Both the position numbers and the translations under genes were made by a program. Positions 9,884-62,126 of a DNA stretch of 64,000 nucleotides are shown in pieces. The DNA comes from a phage. The stretch lies in the sequence record PQ338057.1. The stretch is one strand, 5' to 3'. The first letter of the stretch is position 1, and each line of letters begins with the position of its first letter. The notes beneath the pieces were generated by a model. That model saw only the letters and a list, made by a program, of their open reading frames with translations, was not told the origin of the DNA and ran no database searches.

Positions 9884-10579
9884 ATGTTCAGAAAATTAGC
9901 AGCTGAATGTTTTGGTACTTTCTGGCTTGTTTTTGGTGGCTGTGGTAGTGCTGTACTGGCCGCAGGCTTCCCGGAATTAGGCATTGGTTTTGCCGGCGTG
10001 GCGTTGGCGTTCGGTCTGACCGTTCTGACGATGGCCTTTGCTGTTGGTCATATTTCTGGTGGTCATTTTAACCCGGCGGTCACTATTGGTTTATGGGCTG
10101 GCGGACGTTTTCCGGCAAAAGAAGTCGTTGGCTACGTAATTGCCCAGGTTGTCGGCGGTATTGTTGCGGCAGCGCTGCTGTATTTAATTGCCAGTGGTAA
10201 AACGGGTTTTGACGCGGCAGCCAGCGGTTTTGCTTCTAACGGTTATGGCGAGCATTCACCAGGCGGTTATTCCATGCTTTCCGCGCTGGTAGTTGAACTG
10301 GTATTGAGTGCAGGTTTCCTGTTGGTGATCCACGGCGCAACCGACAAATTCGCGCCGGCAGGTTTTGCGCCGATCGCTATTGGTCTGGCCTTAACCCTGA
10401 TTCACTTAATTAGTATTCCGGTGACTAACACTTCTGTTAACCCGGCGCGCAGCACCGCGGTTGCTATCTTCCAGGGCGGCTGGGCATTAGAACAACTGTG
10501 GTTCTTCTGGGTGGTGCCAATTGTCGGCGGCATTATCGGTGGTCTGATTTACCGGACCCTGCTGGAAAAGCGTGATTAA
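9884..10579 (+). CDS. aqpZ: Aquaporin Z
   Basis: 231 aa from MFRKLAAE; two NPA motifs ([14 protein letters not shown]). Confidence 0.96.
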
Positions 10580-10588
10580 TTAACGCAG

Positions 10589-10618
10589 AAGGCCTGGCGT
10601 AATGTCAGGCCTTTTTTT
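10589..10618 (+). terminator. aqpZ intrinsic terminator
   Basis: aggcctg/caggcct stem followed by T-run. Confidence 0.55.
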
Positions 10619-10679
10619 AAGATGTTGTTATATGTTGATTCATCATCTTGTTGCGCTCCTTTCATGAGCTAAGCAACAT

Positions 10680-10910
10680 ATTGCCACTGGCGCAAGGAGC
10701 GCGCAGGGGGCGGCCAATCGCCGCCGCCCCCTGCACCCCCGGGCTCTGGCGAACAAAATCGCCGCTGCGCGGTGCCCTCGACTTATCCCTTACGGCTACC
10801 GGGTCGGGCGCGAGGTAACATCCCTGTAAAACGCGCCCTCAGCCCACATCCATGTGGGCTGCCCCGGCCTTCAGGGAACGCCTCGGCGATTTTGACGCCA
10901 CCAACATCGG
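10680..10910. repeat. GC-rich intergenic element with nested palindromes
   Basis: hairpins gcagggggcggc...gccgccgccccctgc and cagcccacat-c-catgtgggctg; GC far above the flanking AT-rich DNA. Confidence 0.4.
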
Positions 10911-37797: not shown

Positions 37798-37918
37798 AAC
37801 TGAAGTTGCCCTGAAAATGAAATTTTTTTGCACAACCGCAGAACTTTTCCGCAGGGCATCAGTCTTAATTAGTGCCACTGCTTTTCTTTGATGTCCCCAT
37901 TTTGTGGAGCCCATCAAC

Positions 37919-37961
37919 CCCGCCATTTCGGTTCAAGGTTGATGGGTTTTTTGTTGCCTGA
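37919..37961 (+). terminator. ybjL intrinsic terminator
   Basis: 10-bp stem cccatcaacc/ggttgatggg followed by T-run. Confidence 0.55.
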
Positions 37962-38009
37962 AATTTATGCTCTTTAAAATCATGATGTTAGAAGCACTGT
38001 TTTTTAACG

Positions 38010-38032: not shown

Positions 38033-38284
38033 TCAAAGAGAGAGCGCCACCTGTCCTGATTTCATTGGATGCGGCTGAACCGGATTTGACTCTTTTGGCG
38101 TTGCAATCGAACGAACAAAAGTTTCATGAGTAACAAAAGTATGGCTGCAGTTAATGTTCTGGCACTGGTTGTAACGCTCTTTGGTCAATGAAGATACCTG
38201 AAAACTGCTGCGAGTATGGGCGGCACTTCCACACAGTGGGCAAATCATCATTTTTCGAGTTCTCCCCATTTTTGCTAAATTCAC
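38033..38284 (-). CDS. ogr: Ogr/Delta-type zinc-finger late-gene activator
   Basis: 83 aa; CPLCGSAAH...CQNINCSHTF four-Cys motif as in P2 Ogr. Confidence 0.85.
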   Translation of the reverse strand: MNLAKMGRTRKMMICPLCGSAAHTRSSFQVSSLTKERYNQCQNINCSHTFVTHETFVRSIATPKESNPVQPHPMKSGQVALSL

Positions 38285-38341: not shown

Positions 38342-38710
38342 TCATTCCATTTCGAAATCATCAATCTTCACTTCAAGCTCCAGACTGGTCGTAAAACCGT
38401 TATCCGGGCTGACAGTATGCGTCAGGGTGGTAATAGTCCATTCCGCATCATCTATCGGCTGTTTAAAGCCACTGACTTTCACTGGCATTTCCGTGTAGAG
38501 ATCTGCCCGCCCTTCCGCCAGTTGTAGCGAGAATGACGCAACGCCGCGTTGCAGGCGTTCCCACTGCATTTTCGCCGCTCGTTCGGCGTTGCTCCGGTTG
38601 GCATAAGTGCGATTAAGTACCAGCACGTTTTCATCCGTACCCACCAGGTAATCGCCCTGCTTCGCTTCCGGCTCTTTCTTCTGCTTCTTAGTTCTGCGCT
38701 TACGCTTCAC
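38342..38710 (-). pseudogene. C-terminal remnant of P2 gpD-like late tail protein
   Basis: 122-aa ORF immediately upstream of ogr as in P2 (U-D-ogr); far shorter than gpD (~390 aa); fused to the invertase remnant. Confidence 0.55.
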
Positions 38711-38988
38711 CGTGGTGCTTTCTTTCTTCGCAGGTTCGCGGGTAACTCTTCTATCAGCGTAACAAGATGCCGCATACTGCGCCCCAACCTGTCCAGCTTC
38801 CAGACAACCAGCGTGTCTCCTGCCGATAGTGTCCTGAGCAGTTTTTTCAGCCCCGGTCTGTCGGACTTAGTGCCGCTGATTTTATCCTCAAAAATCCGCT
38901 CACATCCCGCGCAGTTCAGCGCACTACGTTGCAAATCGGTGTTCTGGTCATTTGTTGACACGCGTACATAGCCAATAAGCATGATCAT
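38707..38988 (-). pseudogene. Truncated Gin/Pin/Hin-family serine DNA invertase (N-terminal ~80 aa only)
   Basis: MLIGYVRVSTNDQNTDLQ...DTLVVWKLDRLGRS matches the invertase catalytic domain; C-terminal HTH domain absent. Confidence 0.75.
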
Positions 38989-39009: not shown

Positions 39010-39552
39010 ATGATGCCAGTTAGTCGTAATCGCTGCATTTTCTTAAACGTTGGTTTGGGAGAAGACTCTGCATTACCTGTTGGGGTGCCTGTTCCGTGGC
39101 CTTCAGCCACTCCGCCTACAGGCTGGCTGAAATGCAATGGTGCAGCTTTTTCTGCTGAAGAATACCCGGAACTGGCAAAGGCTTATCCGACAAATAAATT
39201 GCCTGATTTACGTGGTGAGTTTATTCGTGGCTGGGATGATGGGCGTGGTATTGATGCTGGACGTGCCTTGCTAAGTCTTCAGAATGGAGGAGTGGAATCA
39301 CACACCCACCAGGGACAGCTCTTCAGAGTCAGTGATTATCGTACAAAAGAAATACCAGCATCAGAAGTTATGGGAAGAGGATATATTGCAAGCCTGACGC
39401 CGGGTGCTGATAGCCCACTTGATTTTGATGATTATTCTGTATCCTCTAATCCAAATGGATATTTTGTCGGGAATCAGAGAACAACAGCATATGGGGTAAA
39501 TGAAACCCGCCCACGGAATATTGCATTTAACTATATCGTGAGGGCTGCATAA
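39010..39552 (+). CDS. Alternative tail-fibre C-terminal cassette (promoterless) in invertible segment
   Basis: Opposite orientation to H; shares the GLG junction with H at the crossover repeat; followed by its own tfa gene. Confidence 0.7.
   Translation: MMPVSRNRCIFLNVGLGEDSALPVGVPVPWPSATPPTGWLKCNGAAFSAEEYPELAKAYPTNKLPDLRGEFIRGWDDGRGIDAGRALLSLQNGGVESHTHQGQLFRVSDYRTKEIPASEVMGRGYIASLTPGADSPLDFDDYSVSSNPNGYFVGNQRTTAYGVNETRPRNIAFNYIVRAA
39041..39064. repeat. gix/hix-like invertase crossover site (invertase-proximal)
   Basis: ttcttaaacgttggtttgggagaa; 13-bp core ttggtttgggaga is a perfect inverted copy of 41127-41139. Confidence 0.55.
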
Positions 39553-40154
39553 TGGATAACGCTGTATTAAATAGCGAGCTTATTGCCACGAAGGCGGGAA
39601 ATATTCCTGTCTATAACTATGATGGTGAAACACGGGAATATATTTCCACTTCAAATGAATATCTTTCCGTTGGTGTCGGCATTCCGGCATGTTCCTGTTT
39701 AGATGCCCCTGGCACACATAAGGCTGATTATGCAATCTGCCGTTCTACAGATTTTAACTCATGGGAATATGTGCCAGATCATCGCGGTGAAATCGTCTAT
39801 AACACCGAAACGGGAGATGCCAAAGAAATCACAGCTCCGGGTGATTACCCTGAAAATACAACCACTATCGCACCGTTAACGCCATACGATAAATGGGATG
39901 GTGAGAAATGGGTGACAGATACTGAGGCACAACACGGTGCCGCAGTAGAAGTGGCAGAAGCACAACGCCAGTCACTGATTGATGCAGCAATGGCTTCCAT
40001 TAGTCTGATTCAGCTGAAATTGCAGGCCGGGCGGAAGCTGATGCAGGCAGAAACCACCCGACTTAACATTGTGCTGGATTACATTGACGCGGTGACGGCA
40101 ACAGATACCAGCACCGCGCCGGATGTCATCTGGCCTGAACTGCCGGAGGCGTAG
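39552..40154 (+). CDS. Tail-fibre assembly chaperone (alternative Tfa)
   Basis: 200 aa; convergent with the prophage G-like tfa; typical Mu-G-segment-like layout. Confidence 0.75.
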   Translation: MDNAVLNSELIATKAGNIPVYNYDGETREYISTSNEYLSVGVGIPACSCLDAPGTHKADYAICRSTDFNSWEYVPDHRGEIVYNTETGDAKEITAPGDYPENTTTIAPLTPYDKWDGEKWVTDTEAQHGAAVEVAEAQRQSLIDAAMASISLIQLKLQAGRKLMQAETTRLNIVLDYIDAVTATDTSTAPDVIWPELPEA

Positions 40155-40563
40155 GCCATTCAATATCTGGCACACTGGAGGTATCAACCAGCTCCAGTGC
40201 GTCCAGATAATCCAGCCACGAATTATATTGCGCCAGTTCCTCGCCTTTCAGACGACCAATAGCGGCTTTACCGGGCCATTGTTTACTGTTCATGTATTCG
40301 TTGGCCTGATTAATTAATAGCTGTCTTTTTGACTCAGAAATTTCAATAAGTTCTTCATGCGTGGGTGAAGGAATATCTGCCCACGCAGGCATTCCGTCTG
40401 CACCTGCAATACGTCGCTTACCCTGCGGAGGTGTCGCCATAAACGACTCGGCACGTCGGGTTTCAATATCTTTTGCATCATCAGGCCATGTGCCGGAATC
40501 GCGGTATACGGCCTCATTACCAGCCAGATAAAACGCATTTTTTTTAGCACTGTATTTGTACAT
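40126..40563 (-). CDS. Tail-fibre assembly protein (P2 gpG-like)
   Basis: 145 aa directly downstream of H. Confidence 0.8.
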   Translation of the reverse strand: MYKYSAKKNAFYLAGNEAVYRDSGTWPDDAKDIETRRAESFMATPPQGKRRIAGADGMPAWADIPSPTHEELIEISESKRQLLINQANEYMNSKQWPGKAAIGRLKGEELAQYNSWLDYLDALELVDTSSVPDIEWPTPPAVQAR

Positions 40564-40564
40564 A

Positions 40565-42187
40565 TTATTTCCCTACCGCAATCCAGAAAAATGAACTCAT
40601 GCTGGCTACTGGTGCTCCGCCCGCTGTTGGAATCATCAGATTTCGGACGCCGCATCCTAAATTAGTTATCGTTGGCGCTGAAATTACTGGCGACTGAACT
40701 ACGTTAGGAAGCGATGCCTGCTGAGGACCAAATCCCACATACATCGGGTATGCAGAGAACGCGACAGGAAACGTAATAAAGATCTCTCCAGTTGATGATG
40801 GATTGGCTGCCCCCCACTGAATAATCAGACCTGACGGTAATTTTTGCCAGCCAGGGCTGGTCAGGCTGGATGTGAAGTCATTCATATCCGGAATCTGATT
40901 TGCCCCTGAGCCAACATCCCTTTGAGCCGCACTTTTCAGATCAAGATAAGTTCTTAGTTCAGCCTTATCCTTACCGCTTAAATCTGTCAGTGTCTGGTCT
41001 TTTGGTTGCGCATAGTCTTTTGTTGCCAGACGAACTACTGTATTTGTTCTGGCGAATCGCATATACGGGGCATTGACGTTACTACTGTCAAACCCTGCAA
41101 TTTTACATTCATCACCAATTAATGCATCTCCCAAACCAAGGTATGCGAGAAGACCAGCTACATCCTTTCCACTCAAATTAGTCAGCGTATTGTCCAACGG
41201 TTGTTTACCTGCCAGCGCATTAAGCATTGTCGTGGCAAAGTTCGGGTCATTCCCCAGCGCCGCAGCCAGTTCGTTCAGTGTATCCAGTGCAGCAGGTGCA
41301 GACCCCACCATTGCCGCAATTGCCGATTTCACAAAAGCCGTGGTGGCAATCTGTGTATTGTTAACCGACTGTGCGGCAGTGGGGGCTGTTGGCGTTCCGG
41401 TGAATGCCGGACTTAACAGCGGCGCTTTCAGTGCCAGCGCATTGTTAATGGTGGTACTGAATTTCGGGTCATTATTAATGGCAGCGGCAATTTCTTTCAT
41501 CGTATCCAGTGTGGCTGGCGCACCATTAATAAGGGCCATCAGTGCCGCCTGAACAAACGCGGTGGTCGCAATCTGCGTGGTGTTATTCCCCTCCGCTGGC
41601 GTTGGCGCTTTGGGTGTTCCGGTCAATGTCGGGCTTTCTTTGGGTGCATACTGTGAATGCGGGTCCGGTGCGGCAAGATGTTTTGCCATCTTATCATCCA
41701 CGAACACCTTCAGCTCCAGTACCTTGTCATCCACATACTTGCGGGTTGCCAGCACGACGGCAGGGTCGATTTTCAGGGTGATATTGTCCGTGCTGCTGGT
41801 AATCAGCACCATGCGCACGGTCTGGGTACGCCCACTGCCTTCAGCCAGTTGCGGCTTATAGCTTTCCGGGCAGTTTCCCACGGCAATCAATGCCCCGGAC
41901 TCATCAAACAGGCCCACTTCACGTATCCACCAACCGCCCTCATTTTCAGGGATTACCTGTTCAGCAATAATCTGGCTACTGTTCTGCGGGTCGATATAGA
42001 GCATATTCAGCGCAGCCCGGCGTTTCTCATTCACCAGTGCAGTCTGCTTTGCATCCGGCGTTGGCAATACTCCGCCGCCATCGCCGACCGCCATATGGGT
42101 AATTTTTAAAGGCACACCGAGCGCGGCGGCGCTGGCAAGTTTCGCCGCGCCAATATCCGTCAGCAGGGTATAAAATTTTGTGCTCAT
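40565..42187 (-). CDS. Tail fibre protein (P2 gpH-like)
   Basis: 540 aa; N-terminus MSTKFYTLLTDIGAAKLA...MAVGDGGG resembles P2 H. Confidence 0.88.
   Translation of the reverse strand: MSTKFYTLLTDIGAAKLASAAALGVPLKITHMAVGDGGGVLPTPDAKQTALVNEKRRAALNMLYIDPQNSSQIIAEQVIPENEGGWWIREVGLFDESGALIAVGNCPESYKPQLAEGSGRTQTVRMVLITSSTDNITLKIDPAVVLATRKYVDDKVLELKVFVDDKMAKHLAAPDPHSQYAPKESPTLTGTPKAPTPAEGNNTTQIATTAFVQAALMALINGAPATLDTMKEIAAAINNDPKFSTTINNALALKAPLLSPAFTGTPTAPTAAQSVNNTQIATTAFVKSAIAAMVGSAPAALDTLNELAAALGNDPNFATTMLNALAGKQPLDNTLTNLSGKDVAGLLAYLGLGDALIGDECKIAGFDSSNVNAPYMRFARTNTVVRLATKDYAQPKDQTLTDLSGKDKAELRTYLDLKSAAQRDVGSGANQIPDMNDFTSSLTSPGWQKLPSGLIIQWGAANPSSTGEIFITFPVAFSAYPMYVGFGPQQASLPNVVQSPVISAPTITNLGCGVRNLMIPTAGGAPVASMSSFFWIAVGK
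41127..41152. repeat. gix/hix-like invertase crossover site inside H
   Basis: tctcccaaaccaa is the reverse complement of the 39050-39062 core; sits at the GLG codons of H. Confidence 0.55.
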
Positions 42188-42789
42188 GGATTCACTCTCA
42201 TTGTGTCAATAACATGGACCGCCCCGCCTTCATGCGCGGTGCCACCGGAAATAATTGTTTCGTTGATATACGGATAGATCGTGATTTCTTCGCCAAGATA
42301 GCTGGCGGCTCCCACCCAATGCGGGCCGCTGGTCTGCAGGTTGATGGACATGCCGATCATGTGACGGCTGCATGGTTTGGCATCGCTTATCAGTCGCTCA
42401 AGTTCCAGATAGGTATCTTCAGTGATGCCCTGGTCCTGCACGCCGATATCCAGACGAAACGTGCCCGGTGTCTCTCCGGTCTGCCACCACTCAATAATGC
42501 GGATCAGAAAGCCGAACGGCTCCACCACCCGCCGCACGGCACTGGTGGTCCCTTTATGCTGATGAATATAAAAAGCATCCTTCACCACCTGGCGCTTGAC
42601 ACTTTCTGTCCAGTCCTCGTCCCAGCGATCCACAGAGAACGCCCAGGCGAGATAAGGCAGGAAACTGACCGGACAGGTTGCCGGATTCCACAAGTCACGA
42701 AGCGGCACCTGCAGATCAGAAATCCCGCTGCAGGTTTGCGCCAGTCGGCGCTCCAGTGGTGTTGAACCCGGTGGCAGCAGACTATTCAT
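42184..42789 (-). CDS. Baseplate assembly protein (P2 gpI-like)
   Basis: 201 aa; position between J and H. Confidence 0.85.
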   Translation of the reverse strand: MNSLLPPGSTPLERRLAQTCSGISDLQVPLRDLWNPATCPVSFLPYLAWAFSVDRWDEDWTESVKRQVVKDAFYIHQHKGTTSAVRRVVEPFGFLIRIIEWWQTGETPGTFRLDIGVQDQGITEDTYLELERLISDAKPCSRHMIGMSINLQTSGPHWVGAASYLGEEITIYPYINETIISGGTAHEGGAVHVIDTMRVNP

Positions 42790-43690
42790 CCGTTCCTCCG
42801 TTGGTTACGCTCCACTGCGTACATGATGCCGCCTGTGTTTTGTTCAGGACCACATCCGCCAGAGGAGAAGCCAGCTCCACACGCTGCACACCCTCAACAT
42901 GCAAGGCGGCAAAGATGGCGCTACGGCGAATATCCCGACCAAGACGCGTCTGACTGGCGATGTACTTCTGCAGGCTGGCTTTTGCCGCTGCCATTACCGG
43001 CTCTGCTTCCGGTCCCGGATAGAGAAAAATGGTGGCTTCCACGCGATACGGGATGATTTCTGCGCTGCGAACCGTCAGACGGTCAGCCACCGGGCGGACG
43101 TTCTCACTGTTCAGGGCTTTTTCCACCACATCCAGCAGGTCTTTTTCTGCTGTTCCGTCGCCTTCACGGCTAAGGACAGTCAGTACCACCTCTGCAGGTG
43201 CCGGACTGGTTGCACTGGCATCCGCCACCCGACCGTCGGCGCTTCGGGCATGAAATTCATAGGCTGCAGTTGGCCCCGCAACTGAAAGCCCTTCAAAGGC
43301 TGCAGGCACACGCAGGCGTAACGCTTCATCGCTTTCCATCACAGCCGCAACGGGCGGCACAGCGTCATTATCAGCAGGCGTCACCGTCAGGCGTTTCACG
43401 TTGTAGTTGGCAGCGAGCTGGTCAAGATCGCCGCCCATCGCGTAAGCCACCATCACCGCCTGCGCGGCTTCGTTAATGCGCTGGCGCAGAAGCAACTCAC
43501 GGTAAGCATTCTCCTGCAGCAATTTGGTGACGGGTTCAGATTCCAGTTCCAGCGTGCGGATCACGGCTTCCTGCTCATCTTTCGGATGAAGCGCAACAAA
43601 TTCGGCCTTGCGTTCGGCAAGCAACGTCTCAAAGTCCGGCACATCGACAATCTGCGGCGCAGGCAACTGCGAAAGGTCAATCACTGCCAT
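42782..43690 (-). CDS. Baseplate assembly protein J (P2 gpJ-like)
   Basis: 302 aa from MAVIDLSQLPAP; closely resembles P2 gpJ as recalled. Confidence 0.88.
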   Translation of the reverse strand: MAVIDLSQLPAPQIVDVPDFETLLAERKAEFVALHPKDEQEAVIRTLELESEPVTKLLQENAYRELLLRQRINEAAQAVMVAYAMGGDLDQLAANYNVKRLTVTPADNDAVPPVAAVMESDEALRLRVPAAFEGLSVAGPTAAYEFHARSADGRVADASATSPAPAEVVLTVLSREGDGTAEKDLLDVVEKALNSENVRPVADRLTVRSAEIIPYRVEATIFLYPGPEAEPVMAAAKASLQKYIASQTRLGRDIRRSAIFAALHVEGVQRVELASPLADVVLNKTQAASCTQWSVTNGGTDE

Positions 43691-44036
43691 TCTCTGCTCC
43701 TGTTGATACGGAAAGGGAAACAGGCACACCGTTATTACGCCGCCCGGTCAGTCCCACCACCATTGAACCGTCAAAATTGCTGTTAATGGTGATGGAATCC
43801 AGCGTCAGCCGTGGCTCCCAGCGACTCAGCGCCACATACACTGCCGACATGACCTGCAGGCGTAACGCCGGATTTTGTGGCTGGTCTATCAGTGCCGACA
43901 GCAGGGAACCATATTCACGGCGAGCAATGCGGCTACCCTGCGGCGTCAGCAGAATGTCCCGCACCGACTGGCGCAGATGGTCAATATCAGTAATGACTTT
44001 GCCGCTGGTATTGTTCATCCCGCTATAAAGCGTCAT
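43677..44036 (-). CDS. Baseplate protein W (P2 gpW-like)
   Basis: 119 aa between V and J. Confidence 0.8.
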   Translation of the reverse strand: MTLYSGMNNTSGKVITDIDHLRQSVRDILLTPQGSRIARREYGSLLSALIDQPQNPALRLQVMSAVYVALSRWEPRLTLDSITINSNFDGSMVVGLTGRRNNGVPVSLSVSTGAENGSD

Positions 44037-44611
44037 ACCGGGCCTCCGGTTGTATCGCCGCCTTTCAGGACGCCAGTATGCTGATGCGCATCAACCACGA
44101 TCCCGTTAGAACTCATCGCTCCGCCGCCCTGGGTAACGCCACCATTGATCACCACTTCGCTGTTAATGCGCGTGCGGTCAGCCTCCAGTACAAACTCACT
44201 GGTTTTCATGGTGATGTTATCAGCGGCCTCAATGACCATTGATTTGATGCCCCTGACATACCAGCGCCCGGTGGCGGGTTCGTATTCAAACCAGCCACCG
44301 TCAGGATGTTCTGTCACGCAGGCGTCCGCCGACGTCGACGGTGGTGCGAACTGATTCGAATAGACAGCGGGCAGCGCAAAGGCAGTCTCCAGATTGCCGC
44401 CCAGACTCAGCAGCACCACCTGCTCACCTTCCGATGGTCGCCACCATGTGCGGGCATTACCCGCGCGCAGCGTCAGCCAGCTGATCCAGTTGGTTTCAAG
44501 GTCGCCCGTTTTCACCCGACAAAGCCAGTTTTCCCGGTCCACTTCGGTGACTACACCTATGCGGATCAGATTGGTGATAAGGCGCATGATTTCGGTTAGT
44601 TGTGCGTTCAT
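44033..44611 (-). CDS. Baseplate spike/hub protein V (P2 gpV-like)
   Basis: 192 aa from MNAQLTEIMRLI; ORF-track start is upstream in AT-rich DNA. Confidence 0.8.
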   Translation of the reverse strand: MNAQLTEIMRLITNLIRIGVVTEVDRENWLCRVKTGDLETNWISWLTLRAGNARTWWRPSEGEQVVLLSLGGNLETAFALPAVYSNQFAPPSTSADACVTEHPDGGWFEYEPATGRWYVRGIKSMVIEAADNITMKTSEFVLEADRTRINSEVVINGGVTQGGGAMSSNGIVVDAHQHTGVLKGGDTTGGPV

Positions 44612-44657
44612 AGATATATGATGACAGCTGAAAACTTGTTTATAACTTCTTGCAAAT

Positions 44658-44675
44658 TGTGGTATCGATGGTACA
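44658..44675 (-). promoter_or_regulatory. Putative Ogr-dependent late promoter element upstream of V
   Basis: TGT-N12-ACA dyad (tgtggtatcgatggtaca) about 50 bp upstream of the V start. Confidence 0.4.
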
Positions 44676-44714
44676 AATTGATAAAAGGATAAAAAACAAC
44701 CAATAGGTGGATAA

Positions 44715-45521
44715 ATGAGTGTTATGAATCCAATAAGTTCTAATATATTTAATGCTGAATTTTTAAACACCCCGGCAGCGGCACTTGCCGCATGGATTTC
44801 CATTATTGGAGCTGTTATAACTTTGGTGACGATAGTTATAAGAGCACTATTCAAATATAGAAAATCTCATGATGTAATTTTGAAAAAATCAGGAATACCT
44901 GCGTTTATATTAAATTTTTTTCTTATACGAATATCATTAAAAAGGCTGCCTACTATCACATGGGCTGAAAAATCAATCACGGTTCTCTTTTCACTTCTTT
45001 TTTTGTGTGCAATTTATATTTTTGGTCCAGTTTTCATCCAAGCCATTAGAACCCCACCAAATAGCACATTGCTTTATTGGATAAAGTCCGGTGAATCATT
45101 TTATATGTCAAAAAAACTGGCGACTGCAGCTACAATATTAACCACTCCTGATTGGGAAATATCAAAAGATGATTGCGAAGAGTCATCCTCTGCCAGTACA
45201 GAGAAGTACAAATCATTAACTATCGAACATAAAGAAATTCTTTGTAAACTACTAACCACTGATGAAGGGAATACTTACATTGATGAAGAAGTCAAGAATT
45301 TCGTTAAAGACAAATTCTTTATCTATTCCTTTGCCCCAACAACCATATTTATTCTATTATGGATTTCTTTGGGTTTTATACTGACCATTCACTATTCTAA
45401 AAAAGTTAGGAAATATATTCTGACTGAACAAAAAAATGCAATTCATTGGGCATATGGTGAATTCAAGACAGAAGGAATCTATTCAATATATCACGAGTTA
45501 GAACGTAAGACTCACCATTAA
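44715..45521 (+). CDS. AT-rich cargo gene encoding a polytopic membrane protein
   Basis: 268 aa with several hydrophobic helices; SD aggtgg; anti-oriented between S and V where P2 has no gene. Confidence 0.6.
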   Translation: MSVMNPISSNIFNAEFLNTPAAALAAWISIIGAVITLVTIVIRALFKYRKSHDVILKKSGIPAFILNFFLIRISLKRLPTITWAEKSITVLFSLLFLCAIYIFGPVFIQAIRTPPNSTLLYWIKSGESFYMSKKLATAATILTTPDWEISKDDCEESSSASTEKYKSLTIEHKEILCKLLTTDEGNTYIDEEVKNFVKDKFFIYSFAPTTIFILLWISLGFILTIHYSKKVRKYILTEQKNAIHWAYGEFKTEGIYSIYHELERKTHH

Positions 45522-45909
45522 GACCCAACAAACGACGCTCTGCGTAACGCACTTCCGGTCCTTTGCGGCTGACGCGATCGCGCAGGCCATAATGGTGAAC
45601 GCGGGCAATGCGCTGCACCTTACTTTCAAACTGTACGCTGGCAGAGTCGGCGCTGGCGGCGGTTTTCAGGTATTTGGTGGTGCGCAGCTTTGCAAACATC
45701 TGACGTTTGATGCGGCCTTTTTTACTGCGCGCCGTGACCTTGCGCGGTTCATAACTGCTGCCATCTGGATTGCGCTGCATCCTGATATTCTGCTGCTGTG
45801 TCCGGCGCAGTTCCTGCGCCAGCTGGCGCATCATGCGGCTTCTTGCGACTGGTTCCAGATTCGCCAGTAAGGCACTAAGCCAGTCGTCCACCTTCTGCAG
45901 TTCAGCCAC
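45463..45909 (-). CDS. Tail completion/virion morphogenesis protein (P2 gpS-like)
   Basis: 148 aa, position between R and V. Confidence 0.55.
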   Translation of the reverse strand: MAELQKVDDWLSALLANLEPVARSRMMRQLAQELRRTQQQNIRMQRNPDGSSYEPRKVTARSKKGRIKRQMFAKLRTTKYLKTAASADSASVQFESKVQRIARVHHYGLRDRVSRKGPEVRYAERRLLGLNGESYVLTRDILNRFLLS

Positions 45910-46354
45910 GTTTCACCGTCCACATTTCTTCAGGTTCATCGGGTTCTGCTACAGCTTCAACGCTCGACACACTGCCGTCAGTGCTGACCAGCACACGTTC
46001 CGTCAGATGCAGGTTAAGGCTGATATCACAGACATCGTTGCGCAGAATATCCACCTCAAAGGTAAATAGTTTTTCCCGTAACGCCGGGTTATTGATGGCA
46101 TCGGGCTGGTTATCCCGCAGCCACAGCAAAACCGGGGCCATCAGCAGATTCTGGTCGCCGCTGAAATCCTCAATCACCGCGTTCAGGGTGTAACGGTACT
46201 CCCACGACATGGAGCTGGCCCCCGTGGCAACCAGCGAACCGTTATCCACAAACAGATGCAGTTTGTCCGGGTTATTGCGGACATAAGGCACCGCTTTATT
46301 GAGGGCGTGGCGCAGGGATTGTGGTTTGTTCACTGTTTCGCTCCTGACACGCAA
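45902..46354 (-). CDS. Tail completion protein (P2 gpR-like)
   Basis: 150 aa, position after the lysB/lysC pair. Confidence 0.55.
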   Translation of the reverse strand: MRVRSETVNKPQSLRHALNKAVPYVRNNPDKLHLFVDNGSLVATGASSMSWEYRYTLNAVIEDFSGDQNLLMAPVLLWLRDNQPDAINNPALREKLFTFEVDILRNDVCDISLNLHLTERVLVSTDGSVSSVEAVAEPDEPEEMWTVKRG

Positions 46355-46586
46355 TAATCATGTCCACTTTGTCTGCACAGACCGCCCAGGCGGCCTCCGT
46401 TTCATCCAGCAACGCGTTCAGATCACCGTTAGTGCGCGGCGTTGCCTGATCCAGCCGACACGGCGTCACTCGCGGACAACCACTGACGGTAAGCTGTACC
46501 TCCGGTGAGTGCCGGACGTTCCCGCAGCCGGATAATGTCAGCAGGCAAAGGAGTATCAGCCCAGCGGCGTAAATCCTCGTTCTCAC
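46296..46586 (-). CDS. Outer-membrane lipoprotein o-spanin (LysC/Rz1-like)
   Basis: 96 aa; lipobox LLTLSGC; embedded in a different frame across the lysB 3' region. Confidence 0.6.
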   Translation of the reverse strand: MRTRIYAAGLILLCLLTLSGCGNVRHSPEVQLTVSGCPRVTPCRLDQATPRTNGDLNALLDETEAAWAVCADKVDMIIACQERNSEQTTIPAPRPQ

Positions 46587-46857
46587 GTTTCAGTTCCTCG
46601 ATCCGGTGTTGTCGTTGTCTCAGCAGTGCACTGGTCTGTTCTGCTTCGGCATAGAGCCGCGCCTGCTCCCGGTTATTGGTTTCAGTCAGAATGGACAGGC
46701 TGATAAGCTGGCTGTTTTTCTTCGTCAGTTCCTGCGCTTTACTTTTCAGCGCCGCGCGCTGCGTTTCGATGGTGTGGCTGGCGCTGTTAAGCCGCCACGA
46801 CTGCCAGCCCAGCGCAACGAGTGCCAGCGCCACCACTACTGCCAGCGCACGCGTCAT
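46429..46857 (-). CDS. i-spanin (LysB/Rz-like)
   Basis: 142 aa; N-terminal TM then coiled-coil-rich periplasmic region. Confidence 0.65.
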   Translation of the reverse strand: MTRALAVVVALALVALGWQSWRLNSASHTIETQRAALKSKAQELTKKNSQLISLSILTETNNREQARLYAEAEQTSALLRQRQHRIEELKRENEDLRRWADTPLPADIIRLRERPALTGGTAYRQWLSASDAVSAGSGNAAH

Positions 46858-46993
46858 AGTCCAGCTCCTTTAAGGCACCAGGCCATCTCCCGCGCACGGC
46901 GGTTATCCAGCCCCTGATTAAACACACCTTTTACATAAACCCAGCGCGGCAACTGTCGGCACGCATCTGCCCAGCGCCGCTGATTGAGCAATT

Positions 46994-47746
46994 TCACCAG
47001 TGTGGAACTACAGGCATTGCCCGTTGCTGCTTCTGCAGAGCAGACTCCAGTTCAGACAGGCGTTCTTCCTGCTCAGACAGAGATTTTTCGGTTCGCGCGC
47101 TCAGGTTTTGCTGCTCAGTGGCGACCAGCTCCACGGCCTTATGCACATCAGAGAACCGGGCGTCATCGGACTGCTCTTTTTTGGTGAACAGCGCCGTGAC
47201 GCGGGAAAACAGGGACGGTTTGTCGTCCTGGACTTCCTCCAGTTCGATCACCGTTTCCTCTGCAGCGGTAAAGAGATTGGCAGGATTCTGCTTGCGGTTT
47301 GCCAGCGGGTTATGGGCTGCACTGGCGCTGAATGTCAGCATTTCAGTGCCCAGACTGGCAGGGTCATCAGTGGCAGCCAGGCCGACCAGGTAGGCTTTGC
47401 CCGTATCAGCGAACTTCGGGCTGACTTCCATAGAGGTGAATAATTTCTGGCCTTTTTTCACCAGTTCCACCAGGGACTCCGTTGGCTCAACGTCGGCATA
47501 CAGCGCCATCTTGCCTGCCAGCGGACCTTCCGTGATTTCCTCAGCAAACAGCGCCGTCACCTTGCCGTAGCGGTTAAAGGTGCTGTCCGGCAGATAAGAC
47601 TTGATGTGCTCAAGGTTAATCAGCGCGGTATACACCGCCGGGTTGTAGCTGGCTGCCATCTGTTCCAGCCATTCACGCTGGATTTCGCGTCCGTCGGTGG
47701 TGGCACCTTCCACCCCGATGCGAAAACGCTTTGCTTTCACTGTCAT
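46994..47746 (-). pseudogene. Capsid scaffold protein (P2 gpO-like), C-terminally truncated
   Basis: 250 aa, resembles P2 gpO; divergent from P; the downstream N-M-L-X-Y-K-lysA block is missing. Confidence 0.7.
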
Positions 47747-47824
47747 GAGCCGTGCTCCGTTAAAAAAAACTTACTGGAGCCTTATGGTTGCGGTGATGGG
47801 GGTAGTGAAACAATGCGCGGTATT

Positions 47825-47842
47825 TGTACCGACAACCACACA
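47825..47842 (+). promoter_or_regulatory. Putative Ogr-box in the divergent P/O late promoter region
   Basis: tgt-accgacaaccac-aca (TGT-N12-ACA) about 50 bp upstream of the P start. Confidence 0.4.
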
Positions 47843-47888
47843 AACCGCAGGCGGGGAAAGCCTTCATTCAAGGCTGTAGGTTTGTGCC

Positions 47889-49655
47889 ATGAACACCACA
47901 CTGACACCCGCAGATCTCGATCCCCGTCGGCAGGCCATGCTGCTGTACTTTCAGGGATACCGCGTAGCCCGCATTGCTGAAATGCTGGGCGAGAAAGTTG
48001 CAACCGTTCACAGCTGGAAAAAACGCGACAAGTGGGGTGACTATGGGCCGCTGGATCAGATGCAGCTCACCACCGCCGCACGCTACTGCCAGCTCATTAT
48101 GAAGGAGCACAAAGAAGGGAAAGATTTCAAAGAGATTGACCTGCTGGCGCGCCAGTCGGAGCGCCATGCGCGGATCGGCAAGTTTAACAATGGCGGCAAC
48201 GAAGCCGACTTAAACCCTAACGTCGCCAACCGCAACAAAGGCCCGCGTCGTCAGCCGGAAAAGAACGTTTTCACCGATGAACAGATTGAGAAGCTGGAAG
48301 AAATCTTCCATTCCTCCATGTTCAACTACCAGCGCCACTGGTGGGAAGCCGGAAAAACCAACCGCATCCGCAACCTGCTGAAGTCACGCCAGATCGGCGC
48401 GACCTTCTATTTTGCCCGTGAAGCCCTGATTGACGCCCTGCTAACCGGGCGTAACCAGATTTTCCTTTCCGCCAGCAAGGCACAGGCCCACGTCTTTAAG
48501 CAGTACATCATCGACTTCGCCAAAGAAGTGGAGGTGGAGCTGAAAGGCGATCCGATAGTGCTTCCTAACGGGGCCACGCTGTACTTCCTCGGCACCAATG
48601 CCCGCACGGCCCAGAGTTACCACGGCAACCTGTATCTGGATGAATATTTCTGGATACCGAAATTCCAAGAGCTGCGCAAAGTGGCTTCCGGTATGGCTAT
48701 TCACAAAAAATGGCGACAAACCTATTTTTCCACGCCATCCAGCCTGACACACAGTGCTTATCCGTTCTGGTCCGGTGCGCTGTTCAACCGTGGGCGCAAC
48801 AAAGCCGACAAGGTGGACATCGACCTGTCCCACAGCAATCTGGCCCCCGGCCTGCTGTGCACAGACGGGCAATACCGCCAGATAGTCACCGTGGAAGATG
48901 CGGTGCGCGGCGGCTGTAACCTGTTCGACCTCGACCAGCTACGCATGGAGTACAGCCCGGACGAATACCAGAACCTGCTGATGTGCGAGTTCGTGGACGA
49001 TCTCGCGTCCGTGTTCCCGCTCAGCGAGCTGCAAGCGTGCATGGTGGACAGTTGGGAAATCTGGACCGACTTTCATGCACTGGCCCTGCGCCCGTTTGGC
49101 TGGCGCGAAGTGTGGATCGGTTATGACCCGGCAAAAGGTACGCAGAACGGCGACAGTGCCGGATGCGTGGTGGTGGCACCGCCAGCCGTGCCGGGTGGTA
49201 AGTTCCGCATTCTTGAGCGTCACCAGTGGCGCGGGATGGACTTCCGCGCCCAGGCTGACGCCATCAAAAAACTGACCGAGCAGTACAACGTGACCTACAT
49301 CGGCATCGACTCGACAGGTGTCGGCCACGGGGTTTACGAGAACGTGAAAGCGTTTTTTCCAGCCGTCCGGGAGTTTGTCTACAACCCCAACGTTAAAAAC
49401 GCCCTGGTACTCAAGGCCTACGACATTATCAGTCACCGTCGTCTGGAGTTTGACGCCGGACACACCGACATAGCGCAGTCATTTATGGCAATCCGTCGCG
49501 CCACCACCGCCAGCGGCAACCGCCCAACCTATGAAGCCAGCCGCAGCGAAGAAGCCAGCCATGCCGATCTGGCCTGGGCAACAATGCACGCACTGTTTAA
49601 CGAACCGCTGCAGGGCGAGTCCGCCAATACCAGCAATATTGTGGAGATTTTTTGA
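47889..49655 (+). CDS. Terminase large (ATPase) subunit, P2 gpP-like
   Basis: 588 aa. Confidence 0.9.
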   Translation: MNTTLTPADLDPRRQAMLLYFQGYRVARIAEMLGEKVATVHSWKKRDKWGDYGPLDQMQLTTAARYCQLIMKEHKEGKDFKEIDLLARQSERHARIGKFNNGGNEADLNPNVANRNKGPRRQPEKNVFTDEQIEKLEEIFHSSMFNYQRHWWEAGKTNRIRNLLKSRQIGATFYFAREALIDALLTGRNQIFLSASKAQAHVFKQYIIDFAKEVEVELKGDPIVLPNGATLYFLGTNARTAQSYHGNLYLDEYFWIPKFQELRKVASGMAIHKKWRQTYFSTPSSLTHSAYPFWSGALFNRGRNKADKVDIDLSHSNLAPGLLCTDGQYRQIVTVEDAVRGGCNLFDLDQLRMEYSPDEYQNLLMCEFVDDLASVFPLSELQACMVDSWEIWTDFHALALRPFGWREVWIGYDPAKGTQNGDSAGCVVVAPPAVPGGKFRILERHQWRGMDFRAQADAIKKLTEQYNVTYIGIDSTGVGHGVYENVKAFFPAVREFVYNPNVKNALVLKAYDIISHRRLEFDAGHTDIAQSFMAIRRATTASGNRPTYEASRSEEASHADLAWATMHALFNEPLQGESANTSNIVEIF

Positions 49656-50680
49656 TGGGAAAGAGTAAGAAAAACCGCGCTGCGGCGACGAACCAGATCC
49701 AGCATAAAAACCAAACTTCAGCCGAAGCATTCAGCTTCGGTGATCCCGTTCCTGTTCTGGACCGCCGCGAATTACTGGACTATGTGGAATGCGTAAAGAT
49801 GGACCGCTGGTATGAGCCACCCGTAAGTTTTGACGGACTGGCGCGAACATTCCGCGCCGCCGTACACCACAGTTCACCGATTGCAGTAAAGTGCAACATT
49901 CTGACCAGCACCTACATCCCTCACCCGCTGCTCAGCCAGCAGGCGTTTTCACGTTTTGTGCAGGACTATCTGGTTTTTGGTAACGCCTACCTGGAGAAAC
50001 GCACGAACCGATTCGGTGAAGTTATCGCCCTTGAGCCTGCGCTGGCAAAATACACCCGACGCGGATTAGACCTAGATACCTACTGGTTTGTGCAATACGG
50101 CATGACCACGCAGCCGTATCAGTTCACGAAAGGCAGCATTTTTCATCTGATGGAACCGGACATCAACCAGGAGATCTACGGCCTGCCCGGCTATCTTTCT
50201 GCCATCCCATCCGCCCTGCTCAACGAGTCCGCCACGCTGTTCCGCCGAAAGTATTACATTAACGGTAGTCATGCAGGCTTCATCATGTACATGACCGATG
50301 CCGCGCAGAACCAGGAAGATGTGAACAACCTCCGCAATGCGATGAAAAGTGCCAAAGGCCCTGGCAACTTCCGCAACCTGTTTATGTACTCGCCTAATGG
50401 TAAAAAAGACGGACTTCAGATTATCCCGTTGTCAGAAGTCACAGCGAAGGATGAGTTTCTGAATATCAAGAACGTGAGCCGTGATGACATGATGGCGGCA
50501 CACCGCGTGCCGCCGCAAATGATGGGAATTATGCCTAATAATGTCGGGGGGTTTGGGGATGTGGAGAAGGCTAGCAAGGTATTCGTAAGAAACGAATTGA
50601 TGCCCCTGCAGAAACGATTGCAGGAACTAAATAACTGGTTGGACGAAGAAGTGCTCAATTTTTCAACCTATGAGCTTTAG
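49652..50680 (+). CDS. Portal protein, P2 gpQ-like
   Basis: 342 aa; overlaps P stop. Confidence 0.9.
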   Translation: MMGKSKKNRAAATNQIQHKNQTSAEAFSFGDPVPVLDRRELLDYVECVKMDRWYEPPVSFDGLARTFRAAVHHSSPIAVKCNILTSTYIPHPLLSQQAFSRFVQDYLVFGNAYLEKRTNRFGEVIALEPALAKYTRRGLDLDTYWFVQYGMTTQPYQFTKGSIFHLMEPDINQEIYGLPGYLSAIPSALLNESATLFRRKYYINGSHAGFIMYMTDAAQNQEDVNNLRNAMKSAKGPGNFRNLFMYSPNGKKDGLQIIPLSEVTAKDEFLNIKNVSRDDMMAAHRVPPQMMGIMPNNVGGFGDVEKASKVFVRNELMPLQKRLQELNNWLDEEVLNFSTYEL

Positions 50681-50688
50681 TTTTAAAA

Positions 50689-50716
50689 CGAAGACCATTA
50701 GGTCTTCGCTTTATTT
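50689..50716. terminator. Hairpin between convergent portal and retron RT genes
   Basis: cgaagacc-atta-ggtcttcg followed by ctttattt. Confidence 0.45.
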
Positions 50717-51660
50717 AAAGGGTTCTTTCCATATTTTTTTTCTAATTTGCTAATATAAGTTATTAATCTCCTATGGCTTTTTGAATCCACACTTAAAATA
50801 AATGACAACCATCCCCTAACGTGTTCTATCTCAGAAGACTTACCGCAAAATATATGATGTATCTTTGCTCTAATTTCTTTATATTTTTCTCTACCTATCC
50901 CAACTTTCTCTTGTGAAATAACTAAACCTGTAACTTTCCTCTGACTACGAGGCCCACTAATACAAGTTTTTTTTGAGTTAATAACCAATCCTTCACTTGG
51001 GATTATAGAAAATAAAAAATCACGTGCTTTAACAACCTTTTTCATAGACTGTGCAGATAAGGTGAGATCATCGGCATATCTCGTATATATCAAGCCCCGA
51101 CTACCTGCATAACCCTGAATACGATAATCAAGTTTAGAACATATTAGATTAGCTAATTTAGGTGATGATGGAGCACCTTGTGGTAGCAGATTTTTATAAC
51201 AACATATTTTTGTCAAAACTGAAGATATTAGTCGATTATAACCAAGAGAATGGAACACTCCAAAAACTTTGTTAGCAGTTAAACTTGGGAAAAAATCCTC
51301 CAAATCAATATTCAGTATAAAGTTTGCCCCAATATGCGGGGTAGCATTATTCAAAATAGATTGGTGCTTTTCAAATCCAATAGAAAAAGGAGATGACGAC
51401 AGTTTATCTAAAATGTTACGTAGAACCCATCCTTGTAAGGCTTTAAGTTCTCGAGAAGGTTGGTAAATGGTTCTCATTCTCTTCTCTGGGCCTTTCTTTT
51501 CTACAGTGTAGATCCTATAGCGAAAATCAGCTGTATAGATTAACAACCGAAGTGTTTCAACAGATATGCGAGTCGCCTTAGACATGTCATGCAAATTGTT
51601 CATGACAGGTAGGCCGAGATTTCTCAATCTAAAAGTGTTCAAATATTCAGCGGATTTCAT
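50698..51660 (-). CDS. ret: Retron-type reverse transcriptase
   Basis: 320 aa; motifs NATPH (NAxxH), YADD, VTG; AT-rich; ncRNA immediately upstream; from memory matches the Ec86/Eco1 RT. Confidence 0.95.
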   Translation of the reverse strand: MKSAEYLNTFRLRNLGLPVMNNLHDMSKATRISVETLRLLIYTADFRYRIYTVEKKGPEKRMRTIYQPSRELKALQGWVLRNILDKLSSSPFSIGFEKHQSILNNATPHIGANFILNIDLEDFFPSLTANKVFGVFHSLGYNRLISSVLTKICCYKNLLPQGAPSSPKLANLICSKLDYRIQGYAGSRGLIYTRYADDLTLSAQSMKKVVKARDFLFSIIPSEGLVINSKKTCISGPRSQRKVTGLVISQEKVGIGREKYKEIRAKIHHIFCGKSSEIEHVRGWLSFILSVDSKSHRRLITYISKLEKKYGKNPLNKAKT

Positions 51661-51666
51661 GAAAGT

Positions 51667-51836
51667 TGCGCACCCTTACGTCAGAAAAAACGGGTTTCCT
51701 GGTTGGCTCGGAGAGCATCAGGCGATGCTCTCCGTTCCAACAAGGAAAACAGACAGTAACTCAGATTCAATGCAGGATGCCGAAACAACATCCAGAGGTT
51801 GACCTTAATGATAAACCTCTCGCTAAGGGTGCGCAT
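51667..51836 (-). ncRNA. msr-msd: Retron msr-msd non-coding RNA
   Basis: 12-nt terminal inverted repeats tgcgcaccctta (51667-51678) and taagggtgcgca (51824-51835); long internal hairpin; ends 7 nt before the RT start. Confidence 0.85.
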
Positions 51837-52746
51837 ACGGAATCTTATCATAGTTAAATGTTGATTTTCTACGGTTTTCAAAATTCATAATCTCAAGCCG
51901 CAATCGGTCAAGTGTCTTTCTATCAAAGACGCTCCTAACATAGCTAGCCCCCAAAGCAGTGACCTGATAACCATCAGTCATTTGAAGTATTTTTCGTTCA
52001 TTTATTAGACGAGAAACAACGGATCTAACAATAATTTTAGATAAAACATCATCTTGCTTTATCGCTTTAAAAGCTAGTTCACACAGTGTGCGGTAGTTGA
52101 CACTATCCAGTAAATAGATACAAGGCAATAGAAACCGCTCTGCGTATAATATATTTCCAATATCTTTTGATACTTTATTTTCTTTCCTAACCTTCTTAAT
52201 AGATGCCATTAATTTTTTATATAATCGTAATTTTCTGGCAACATCAATAGATGAATCACACATTTCTTTTAGTTCATTTGAACTACAACGCAAAACAGAT
52301 TTTGAATTAAACTTACGCAACAGGCGAACAGGACCATAGTTAATAAAGCTACGTTTTGATTTAAATTTTGCATCTTGAATGCAAATCAACTTTCTCCTTA
52401 AGTTTTCATTATTAGAGAACGCACCAAGCTCTGTGAAAGACCCCGGACTTTCAGGAAATAAAATTATTACATCGACAGCTTCAGCCAGAATATTTTCTAA
52501 ACTTAAAAGGCTATGCTGCCCTTGACCAGCCAAAAGATCATCAAATAGATCTTCTGGATAAAATATATCAACATCACTGAACTTTGCTAAAAATTGTGAT
52601 AATTGATGACGCCAAGATTGATGATTAGCAACGTCACCACCACATAGAAAAATGGTTATTTTAATATTAGCTCCTCGATAGAAGCCTTTCTTTGTGAGAT
52701 GTCCTATAAGCTGTTGTTGCTGCTCATCGGTAAATTTTTTATTCAT
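51823..52746 (-). CDS. Retron effector (predicted nucleoside-deoxyribosyltransferase-like N-glycosidase with C-terminal DNA-binding region)
   Basis: 307 aa, AT-rich; first gene of the retron operon with its 3' end overlapping the msr start; Rossmann-like N-terminus KITIFLCGG. Confidence 0.75.
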   Translation of the reverse strand: MNKKFTDEQQQQLIGHLTKKGFYRGANIKITIFLCGGDVANHQSWRHQLSQFLAKFSDVDIFYPEDLFDDLLAGQGQHSLLSLENILAEAVDVIILFPESPGSFTELGAFSNNENLRRKLICIQDAKFKSKRSFINYGPVRLLRKFNSKSVLRCSSNELKEMCDSSIDVARKLRLYKKLMASIKKVRKENKVSKDIGNILYAERFLLPCIYLLDSVNYRTLCELAFKAIKQDDVLSKIIVRSVVSRLINERKILQMTDGYQVTALGASYVRSVFDRKTLDRLRLEIMNFENRRKSTFNYDKIPYAHP

Positions 52747-52821
52747 AATCTCCCCGCTTTTTTTTCTACTTTATACATCAAGTTATGAATAGATCCAATC
52801 TCCATACCACATGGCGCGCGC

Positions 52822-52840
52822 TCGTATCCCCGCCACGCCT
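52822..52840. other. Possible cos (cohesive-end) remnant
   Basis: Reverse strand reads GGCGTGGCGGGGA, matching the first 13 nt of the 186/P2 19-nt cos as I recall it. Confidence 0.3.
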
Positions 52841-53218
52841 GCCCGCTTTATGCAGTGGTTTTCATGCACATGCATAACATGAGCAAAAGCCCGCCAGTTC
52901 TGGCGGATCTGAGCAAAGACGATCCTCAATCGATCATGCGATTTCATGCAGCATAGTCATGCACTGTCAAGGAAGTGAAAATCCGTATCTGAATGGCCAC
53001 TTGAAAAACGGATCATACGGGTTTACAAAGATGAATGTTCGCTGTGAACGGGAAGCGGAAGTTAACTTTCAGATAACATAATCCATATGCACGAGAACCT
53101 CTAAAATAGAATGGGACACCTAAGCGGGGTACTTACAACGATTCTTTCCATATTCACAGTTAACACTCTGTTTGGCGTATTTTTATTCAAATAGCAAACA
53201 CCAATAAAAGGAGTTTCC

Positions 53219-62004: not shown

Positions 62005-62126
62005 GTTGGCATTACCCCGTAATAACCACCACTGACCACCAACCCAACTTATTGTTTTTACTATAACTTATTGTTTTCATTAACCCGTTTACATAAATGG
62101 GTTTTTTGTTATCTAAAACTTATCTA

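Follow-up and report, generated by a model that had tools for sequence, protein, structure and literature searches.

The window analysed here, a stretch of 64 kb, is part of the E. coli B chromosome and matches REL606 and BL21. It contains a P2/186-like (Peduoviridae) defective prophage at rybB, "Rybb*B", with the retron Ec86/Eco1. The element is entered as 'Rybb*B (P2)', the carrier of retron Ec86, in PMC3032704 (Table 2), and another study placed retron Eco1 inside a P2-like prophage of BL21. The prophage comprises 24,155 bp between two att-like repeats. Scanning the entire element for repeats revealed none besides these att cores. For the coordinates of the individual features see Table 1.

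Collinear late genes, a divergent Q-P operon beside O, R and S downstream of the lysis cassette and an activator of the Ogr/Delta type identify the element as P2-like. We made this assignment from the PGAP annotation of REL606, from Pfam matches to GPO, GpR and Phage_tail_S, and from DNA identity, which amounts to 95–100% over the late region for phage Cartapus and intact E. coli prophages. A tblastn search of the window did not find the full set of head and lysis genes (N, M, L, X, holin and endolysin) that a functional phage would have. The retron RT, the NDT effector, CI, the integrase and the replication genes are all full length according to PGAP and PADLOC. A cos-adjacent sequence is also present; the packaging site has probably survived, the small terminase gene has not. 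Far from the prophage, at positions 101–180 of the window, two CRISPR-type repeats 60 bp apart match the Rfam family CRISPR-DR4. This pair appears to be a vestigial mini-array.

An apparently complete prophage of the same kind, free of pseudogene flags, is found in E. coli 20A24 from wastewater (NZ_CP147044.1, ~2816000–2851300). Its chromosomal site is the same, with ybjL/rybB on one side and rcdA on the other, and so are its gene order and retron cargo, but it differs in the mosaic of immunity and integrase genes. Including 20A24, four genomes outside the B group (the others being the natural isolates VG1046-3E9, JNE082640 and FDAARGOS_433) carry the same retron cargo beside a P2-like portal gene. 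Phage Cartapus (Elveevirus, Peduoviridae) likewise shows this gene order and is ~95–96% identical over the late genes. In P2 itself the O operon runs O N M L X Y K lysA lysB lysC R S, and the homologous genes follow the same order here. The divergent P-Q operon and the overlapped LysB/LysC spanins are also common to both. The lysozyme of this lineage is of the PF00959 type and is paired with a holin annotated as HP1-family.

Table 1. Coordinates of the features of the prophage and its borders in the window.
Feature	Position	Strand	Basis and remarks
RybB sRNA gene	37877–37955		Abuts the prophage; its 3' end overlaps the left att-like repeat
att-like cores	37942–37968 and 62097–62123		27-nt imperfect direct repeat, 85% identity
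Late-gene activator, Ogr/Delta zinc-finger family	38033–38251	-	PGAP WP_000972391.1, as in 20A24
Tail-deletion junction	38737–38744 (context 38342–38982)		blastn against 20A24
S (tail completion/virion morphogenesis)	45463–45909	-	Intact; PF05069 Phage_tail_S, E = 2e-38; WP_000829156.1 in REL606 and 20A24
R (tail completion)	45902–46333	-	Intact; PF06891 GpR, E = 1e-45; WP_001039932.1 in REL606 and 20A24
lysC (o-spanin, 96 aa)	46296–46586	-	PF23793 LysC, E = 6e-16
lysB (i-spanin, 142 aa)	46429–46857	-	Intact; PGAP 'Rz-like lysis system protein LysB' WP_000196203.1
'K (3' lysozyme remnant)	46854–47024	-	171 bp; codons 116–171 and stop
Deletion junction	47024/47025		Base-by-base comparison with the E. 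coli 20A24 prophage
O' (truncated capsid scaffold/protease)	46994–47746	-	Pfam PF05929 Phage_GPO, tblastn, comparison with O of 20A24
Divergent P/O late-promoter region	47747–47888		Alignment; identical to 20A24
P (large terminase)	47889–49655	+	PGAP; full length, as in 20A24
Q (portal)	~49655–50680	+	PGAP; full length, as in 20A24
Retron RT	50698–51660		PADLOC-confirmed
Retron NDT effector	51823–52746		PADLOC-confirmed
cos-adjacent sequence	52814–52867		98% identical to the Cartapus cos end; just past the retron effector gene

Truncated genes between the late promoter and lysB

The scaffold gene is present as an open reading frame of 250 codons, in agreement with an earlier note on this DNA, which had described O as cut short at about 250 aa. 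It matches PF05929 with E = 2e-105 over model positions 2–236 of 268. Authentic O sequence extends over codons 1–241 (47746–47024). The remaining nine codons, RAMPVVPHW, and the stop codon (47023–46994) are an out-of-frame read-through of the lysozyme remnant. Compared with the intact protein of 277 residues, the C-terminal 36 residues are thus replaced in O' by nine unrelated ones. In gpO of P2 the protease comprises the N-terminal 141 residues, while residues 195–284 form an internal scaffold that is absolutely required for procapsid assembly (PMC7552001). O' keeps the protease and middle regions and lacks the end of the scaffolding domain. We infer that its scaffolding function is lost. A capsid protein on which O' could act is no longer encoded in the window.

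Between the O' and lysB reading frames lie exactly 136 bp (46858–46993), the length given in the earlier note. This interval is not an intergenic, empty spacer but part of the 3' end of the lysozyme gene. The remnant 'K is 100% identical to residues 116–171 of the 20A24 lysozyme (171 aa), and its translation covers positions 81–125 of the 125 positions of Pfam PF00959 Phage_lysozyme, i.e. the last 45. With 115 of the 171 codons deleted, a full-length catalytic domain with the N-terminal catalytic residues is absent, and what survives of the endolysin should be a non-catalytic C-terminal stub. RefSeq/PGAP already lists the fragment as pseudogene ECB_RS04425 ('glycoside hydrolase family protein, incomplete, missing N-terminus'); in the REL606 annotation it shares 31 nt with the 3' end of the 'GPO family capsid scaffolding protein' reading frame. 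An endolysin gene in the interval had been named beforehand as the observation that would speak against a deletion. The fragment found there contains the C-terminal part only and confirms the deletion.

Relative to 20A24 the missing block contains the final 36 codons of O, lysozyme codons 1–115 and, between them, the complete genes N (major capsid), M (small terminase/endonuclease subunit), L (head completion), X (a tail gene) and the holin gene. We searched the 64-kb window by tblastn with the intact N, M, L, X and holin proteins of 20A24 and obtained no match anywhere; among all six 20A24 proteins used as queries, residues 116–171 of the lysozyme gave the only match. The earlier claim that N, M, L, X, Y, K and lysA are missing therefore holds for N, M, L, X and the holin gene. 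It has to be amended for K, of which the 3' remnant stays, and for lysA, which is absent from the closest relatives and was not to be expected. Unlike P2, this lineage lacks a lysA gene between K and lysB: the lysozyme stop codon overlaps the lysB start in 20A24, Cartapus, JX21CE8 and WP4-S18, and lysA is absent from all four. A gene in the lysA slot is present in P2 and in the prophage of E. coli MIN9, where the extra gene (10307–10684 of the MIN9 sequence compared) lies between the lysozyme gene and lysB. On this comparison lysA was probably never part of the lineage seen here.

Deletion junction and its distribution

A base-by-base comparison with the intact 20A24 prophage showed a loss of exactly 3,148 bp. 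The junction falls 31 bp inside the O' reading frame and not at its stop codon (46994), which the earlier note had taken as the breakpoint. To the left of it, positions 41127–47025 have a single mismatch to 20A24 over 5,899 bp; the first 1,500 bp to the right have none. Over the late region the two copies are 99.98% identical. The left parental flank reads ...GCATTGCCCGTT/CCCACG (the slash marking the breakpoint) and matches the window up to 47025. The right parental flank reads ...AAAGGCGGTTT/GCTGCTTCTG and matches the window down to 47024. The window itself reads ...GCATTGCCCGTTGCTGCTTCTG across the junction. Only the dinucleotide TT is common to both parental flanks at the crossover, i.e. 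a microhomology of 2 nt. We also looked for an IS element or a long repeat at the junction and found neither, the TT overlap being the only shared sequence.

The same breakpoint was obtained on both flanks by comparison with Cartapus, JX21CE8 and WP4-S18, and on the O side also with MIN9. In a megablast search against phage genomes, homology is unbroken from S through lysB into the endolysin gene and ends at position 47025 of the window. These flanks mark the junction as a product of illegitimate recombination at microhomology. A single such recombination joined two points sharing only TT and removed the 3,148 bp, so that codon 241 of O is now followed, out of frame, by lysozyme codon 116.

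The deletion reading of the earlier note is supported, and nothing contradicts the deletion itself. We put the probability at about 95% that an ordinary deletion in the late O operon of a known defective prophage produced this scar. The opposite arrangement of events would make the present gene order ancestral, in a satellite or tailocin-like derivative that never had head and lysis genes. The combination of cos-adjacent sequence, large terminase, portal, integrase and replication genes does superficially recall a helper-dependent element. However, both genes flanking the junction are cut in mid-domain, the tail of O' is out-of-frame read-through, and a collinear, nearly identical prophage contains the missing block. 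Furthermore, the annotated genes are all collinear with a P2-like prophage save for cargo in known variable slots. No gene is annotated with a P4-type or other satellite-specific function, as far as the annotation goes, and a tailocin is contradicted by the tail sheath and tube genes, which are missing too. An ancestral origin of the arrangement is effectively refuted.

The distribution of the junction was examined in 5,426 complete E. coli genomes. About 1,050 of them match both halves of the junction query, typically at two separate places, which corresponds to the intact arrangement. The halves are contiguous, i.e. the junction is present, in 44 genomes. Of these, 43 are laboratory strains by name, and those that could be recognised are derivatives of E. 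coli B. The remaining genome, CP029371 ('strain C'), comes from cow's milk, and its sequence is 100% identical in the two segments that were compared. The junction region is likewise 100% identical in REL606, BL21(DE3), ATCC 11303, NCTC10537 and other laboratory strains. Among the phage genome records searched by megablast, none has the junction. An error of sequencing or assembly can be given practically no weight, since 44 complete genomes, each sequenced independently, have the same junction at 100% identity.

The deletion is a single event, older than the divergence of the laboratory B strains. It is unlikely to have been present already in the incoming phage DNA, rather than arising in the B lineage after lysogeny, because a phage genome of this kind would be unable to form a particle alone.

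Retained genes of the O operon

The reading frames downstream of the interval are the spanin pair lysB/lysC, as had been noted earlier, followed by R and S, the last gene of the operon. The N-terminus of LysB (MTRALAVVVALALVALGW) contains a hydrophobic segment. The lysB gene has its own Shine-Dalgarno sequence, AAGGAG, 7 nt upstream of the ATG, and this ATG overlaps the stop codon of 'K (ATGA). lysC begins inside lysB in another frame, overlaps it by 158 nt and continues for 133 nt past the lysB stop codon. Its product has a signal peptide with the lipobox LSGC (MRTRIYAAGLILLCLLTLSGC). This is the overlapped i-spanin/o-spanin architecture of the P2 LysB/LysC type, as PMC6139136 defines it. The lysC start annotated by PGAP (46544, 82 aa) would cut into the lipoprotein signal peptide, whereas the upstream GTG (96 aa) gives a complete one; the annotated gene is probably too short.

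The slot between S and V is occupied on the opposite strand by a DUF6216 gene (44715–45521, + strand), which encodes 268 aa with hydrophobic segments. In P2 the corresponding slot contains the nonessential orf30, and in the WP4-S18 prophage it contains genes for an AAA ATPase and an HNH endonuclease. It looks like a variable cargo position.

In the P2 record a single transcript from pO covers the genes from O to S, and the activator site is common to pO and pP. In the prophage of E. coli B we observed a TGT-N12-ACA dyad within the P/O region at 47825–47842 and a second one upstream of V at 44658–44675. The motif is not enriched over the window (11 found, ~15 expected), and since its count is not above chance, it is the position of the P/O dyad that suggests its putative role. 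The P/O intergenic control region is too divergent from that of P2 to be aligned, and the mapped activator site of P2 could not be transferred. A scan of positions 44500–48000 for sigma-70 promoters and terminators gave nothing above the shuffled expectation. Because the late promoter, the activator gene and the downstream genes are unchanged, an O'-'K-lysB-lysC-R-S transcript is plausible, and this chimeric mRNA could still be made on induction.

Spanins perform the final step of lysis, after holin and endolysin (PMC6139136). Since their action comes only after peptidoglycan degradation, LysB and LysC would be inert passengers in this prophage and harmless on their own. The LysB, LysC, R and S proteins are the same as in the intact 20A24 prophage by their RefSeq accessions, which are also shared for DUF6216, V, J, I, Ogr, the RT and the effector. 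Aside from the two deletions, every other shared gene is equal in length to its 20A24 counterpart. That accessory genes persist, as the earlier note had stated, is correct as far as their retention is concerned. There is no evidence of selection, however, because the late genes that remain show practically no difference from those of the intact relative, and the persistence of lysB, lysC, R and S would reflect a recent deletion rather than demonstrable selection.

A role of the retained genes for the host is conceivable. The spanins, the O' protease or both might have been co-opted, either for outer-membrane vesiculation or for completing lysis that starts from the endolysin of another prophage or from abortive infection. 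The intact lysB and lysC genes, the strong Shine-Dalgarno sequence of lysB and the presence of late promoter and activator gene would fit such a role. The same proteins are found in 20A24, however, so that there is no distinguishing sequence signature, and PADLOC gave no defence-family match for LysB, as was the case for DUF6216 and a 111-aa reading frame. As the recent deletion fully explains the retention, we regard co-option of this kind as extremely unlikely. In a further reading the element would be helper-dependent or satellite-like, with a superinfecting P2-like phage packaging or rescuing it, or an Ogr-inducible O'-lysB-lysC-R-S unit would be co-opted, in which the spanins could for instance complete lysis begun by another prophage or by the abortive response of the retron. 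The gene basis for this is provided by att sites, integrase, replication endonuclease, cos-adjacent sequence, large terminase, portal, late promoter and activator. The sequence offers these intact genes and nothing further in its support, and we judge it very unlikely.

A third alternative concerns the deletion itself, which may have been positively selected as a step of domestication: loss of the lysis and head genes would spare the host on SOS induction and keep the cargo (retron Eco1 and repressor). The deletion removes Y and K, both essential for lysis in P2 according to the P2 annotation, while the retron RT, the NDT effector, CI, the integrase and the replication genes remain full length, and the junction is identical in every carrier genome. 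This uniformity has no statistical weight, however, because the B strains are one clone. The breakpoints lie inside genes and share a microhomology of only 2 nt, as expected of a random event, and the late genes are almost undiverged from the intact phage, so that a signal of purifying selection is not measurable. Moreover, the replication endonuclease gene is intact, and induction could still harm the cell. On balance we consider positive selection for the loss of the lysis module rather unlikely and retain the ordinary deletion scar as the preferred reading.

Tail deletion and the state of the prophage

A second, separate deletion has affected the tail genes. Here 6,904 bp are missing compared with 20A24, with a junction near 38743 and a microhomology of only ~3 nt (GTA). 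The C-terminus of the invertase, the genes FI, FII, E, E', T and U, and the N-terminal part of D are lost. The invertase keeps residues 1–80 of 188 and is fused to a D fragment that lacks the N-terminal part; PGAP annotates truncated pseudogenes of the VgrG/Pvc8 family and of a recombinase at this position. The invertible tail-fibre segment at ~39050–40300, with alternative fibre C-termini and assembly genes, is in the opposite orientation compared with 20A24. It must be frozen, because the adjacent invertase gene is truncated.

20A24 and Cartapus keep all of the genes concerned, namely O (277 aa), N, M, L, X, holin, lysozyme (171 aa) and the tail genes from FI to D. Through the first deletion the prophage of E. 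coli B would be unable to build heads, to cut cos or to lyse the cell, and with the tail deletion added no particles are expected. The description of the element in the earlier note as a cryptic P2-like prophage with an internal head and lysis deletion and a tail deletion is borne out by the truncation of both flanking genes, by the presence of the 3,148 bp in 20A24 and by the loss of 6,904 bp at the tail junction.

Erosion of P2-like prophages by internal deletion is also represented by the K-12 remnant 'ogr-D'' and by P2*B at cyaR (PMC3032704, Table 2). Both are far more reduced than the element at rybB, which has lost only ~10 kb in two events. E. coli BE2-5 shows a far more extensive erosion that arose independently, in which a lysozyme fragment is joined to the CII and D genes.

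The scar is thus already known in kind. It represents ordinary erosion of a cryptic prophage, and its key remnant is annotated in RefSeq. The exact junction of the 3,148-bp deletion and its TT microhomology were derived from the present comparison. The published accounts consulted, which name the prophage, give no breakpoints; Studier et al. 2009 (J Mol Biol) reportedly describe the B prophages in more detail. The significance beyond bookkeeping is small. The case also advises caution, as the persistence of genes cannot be read as selection while a remnant is essentially identical to a live phage. With the two junctions, a base-level record is available of how the retron-Ec86 prophage of BL21 and its relatives, the most used protein-expression strains, was inactivated, namely by two microhomology-level deletions. 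In 20A24 there is a natural isolate with the apparently intact parent phage, which could be useful as a source of an inducible, retron-carrying P2-like phage or for an isogenic comparison.
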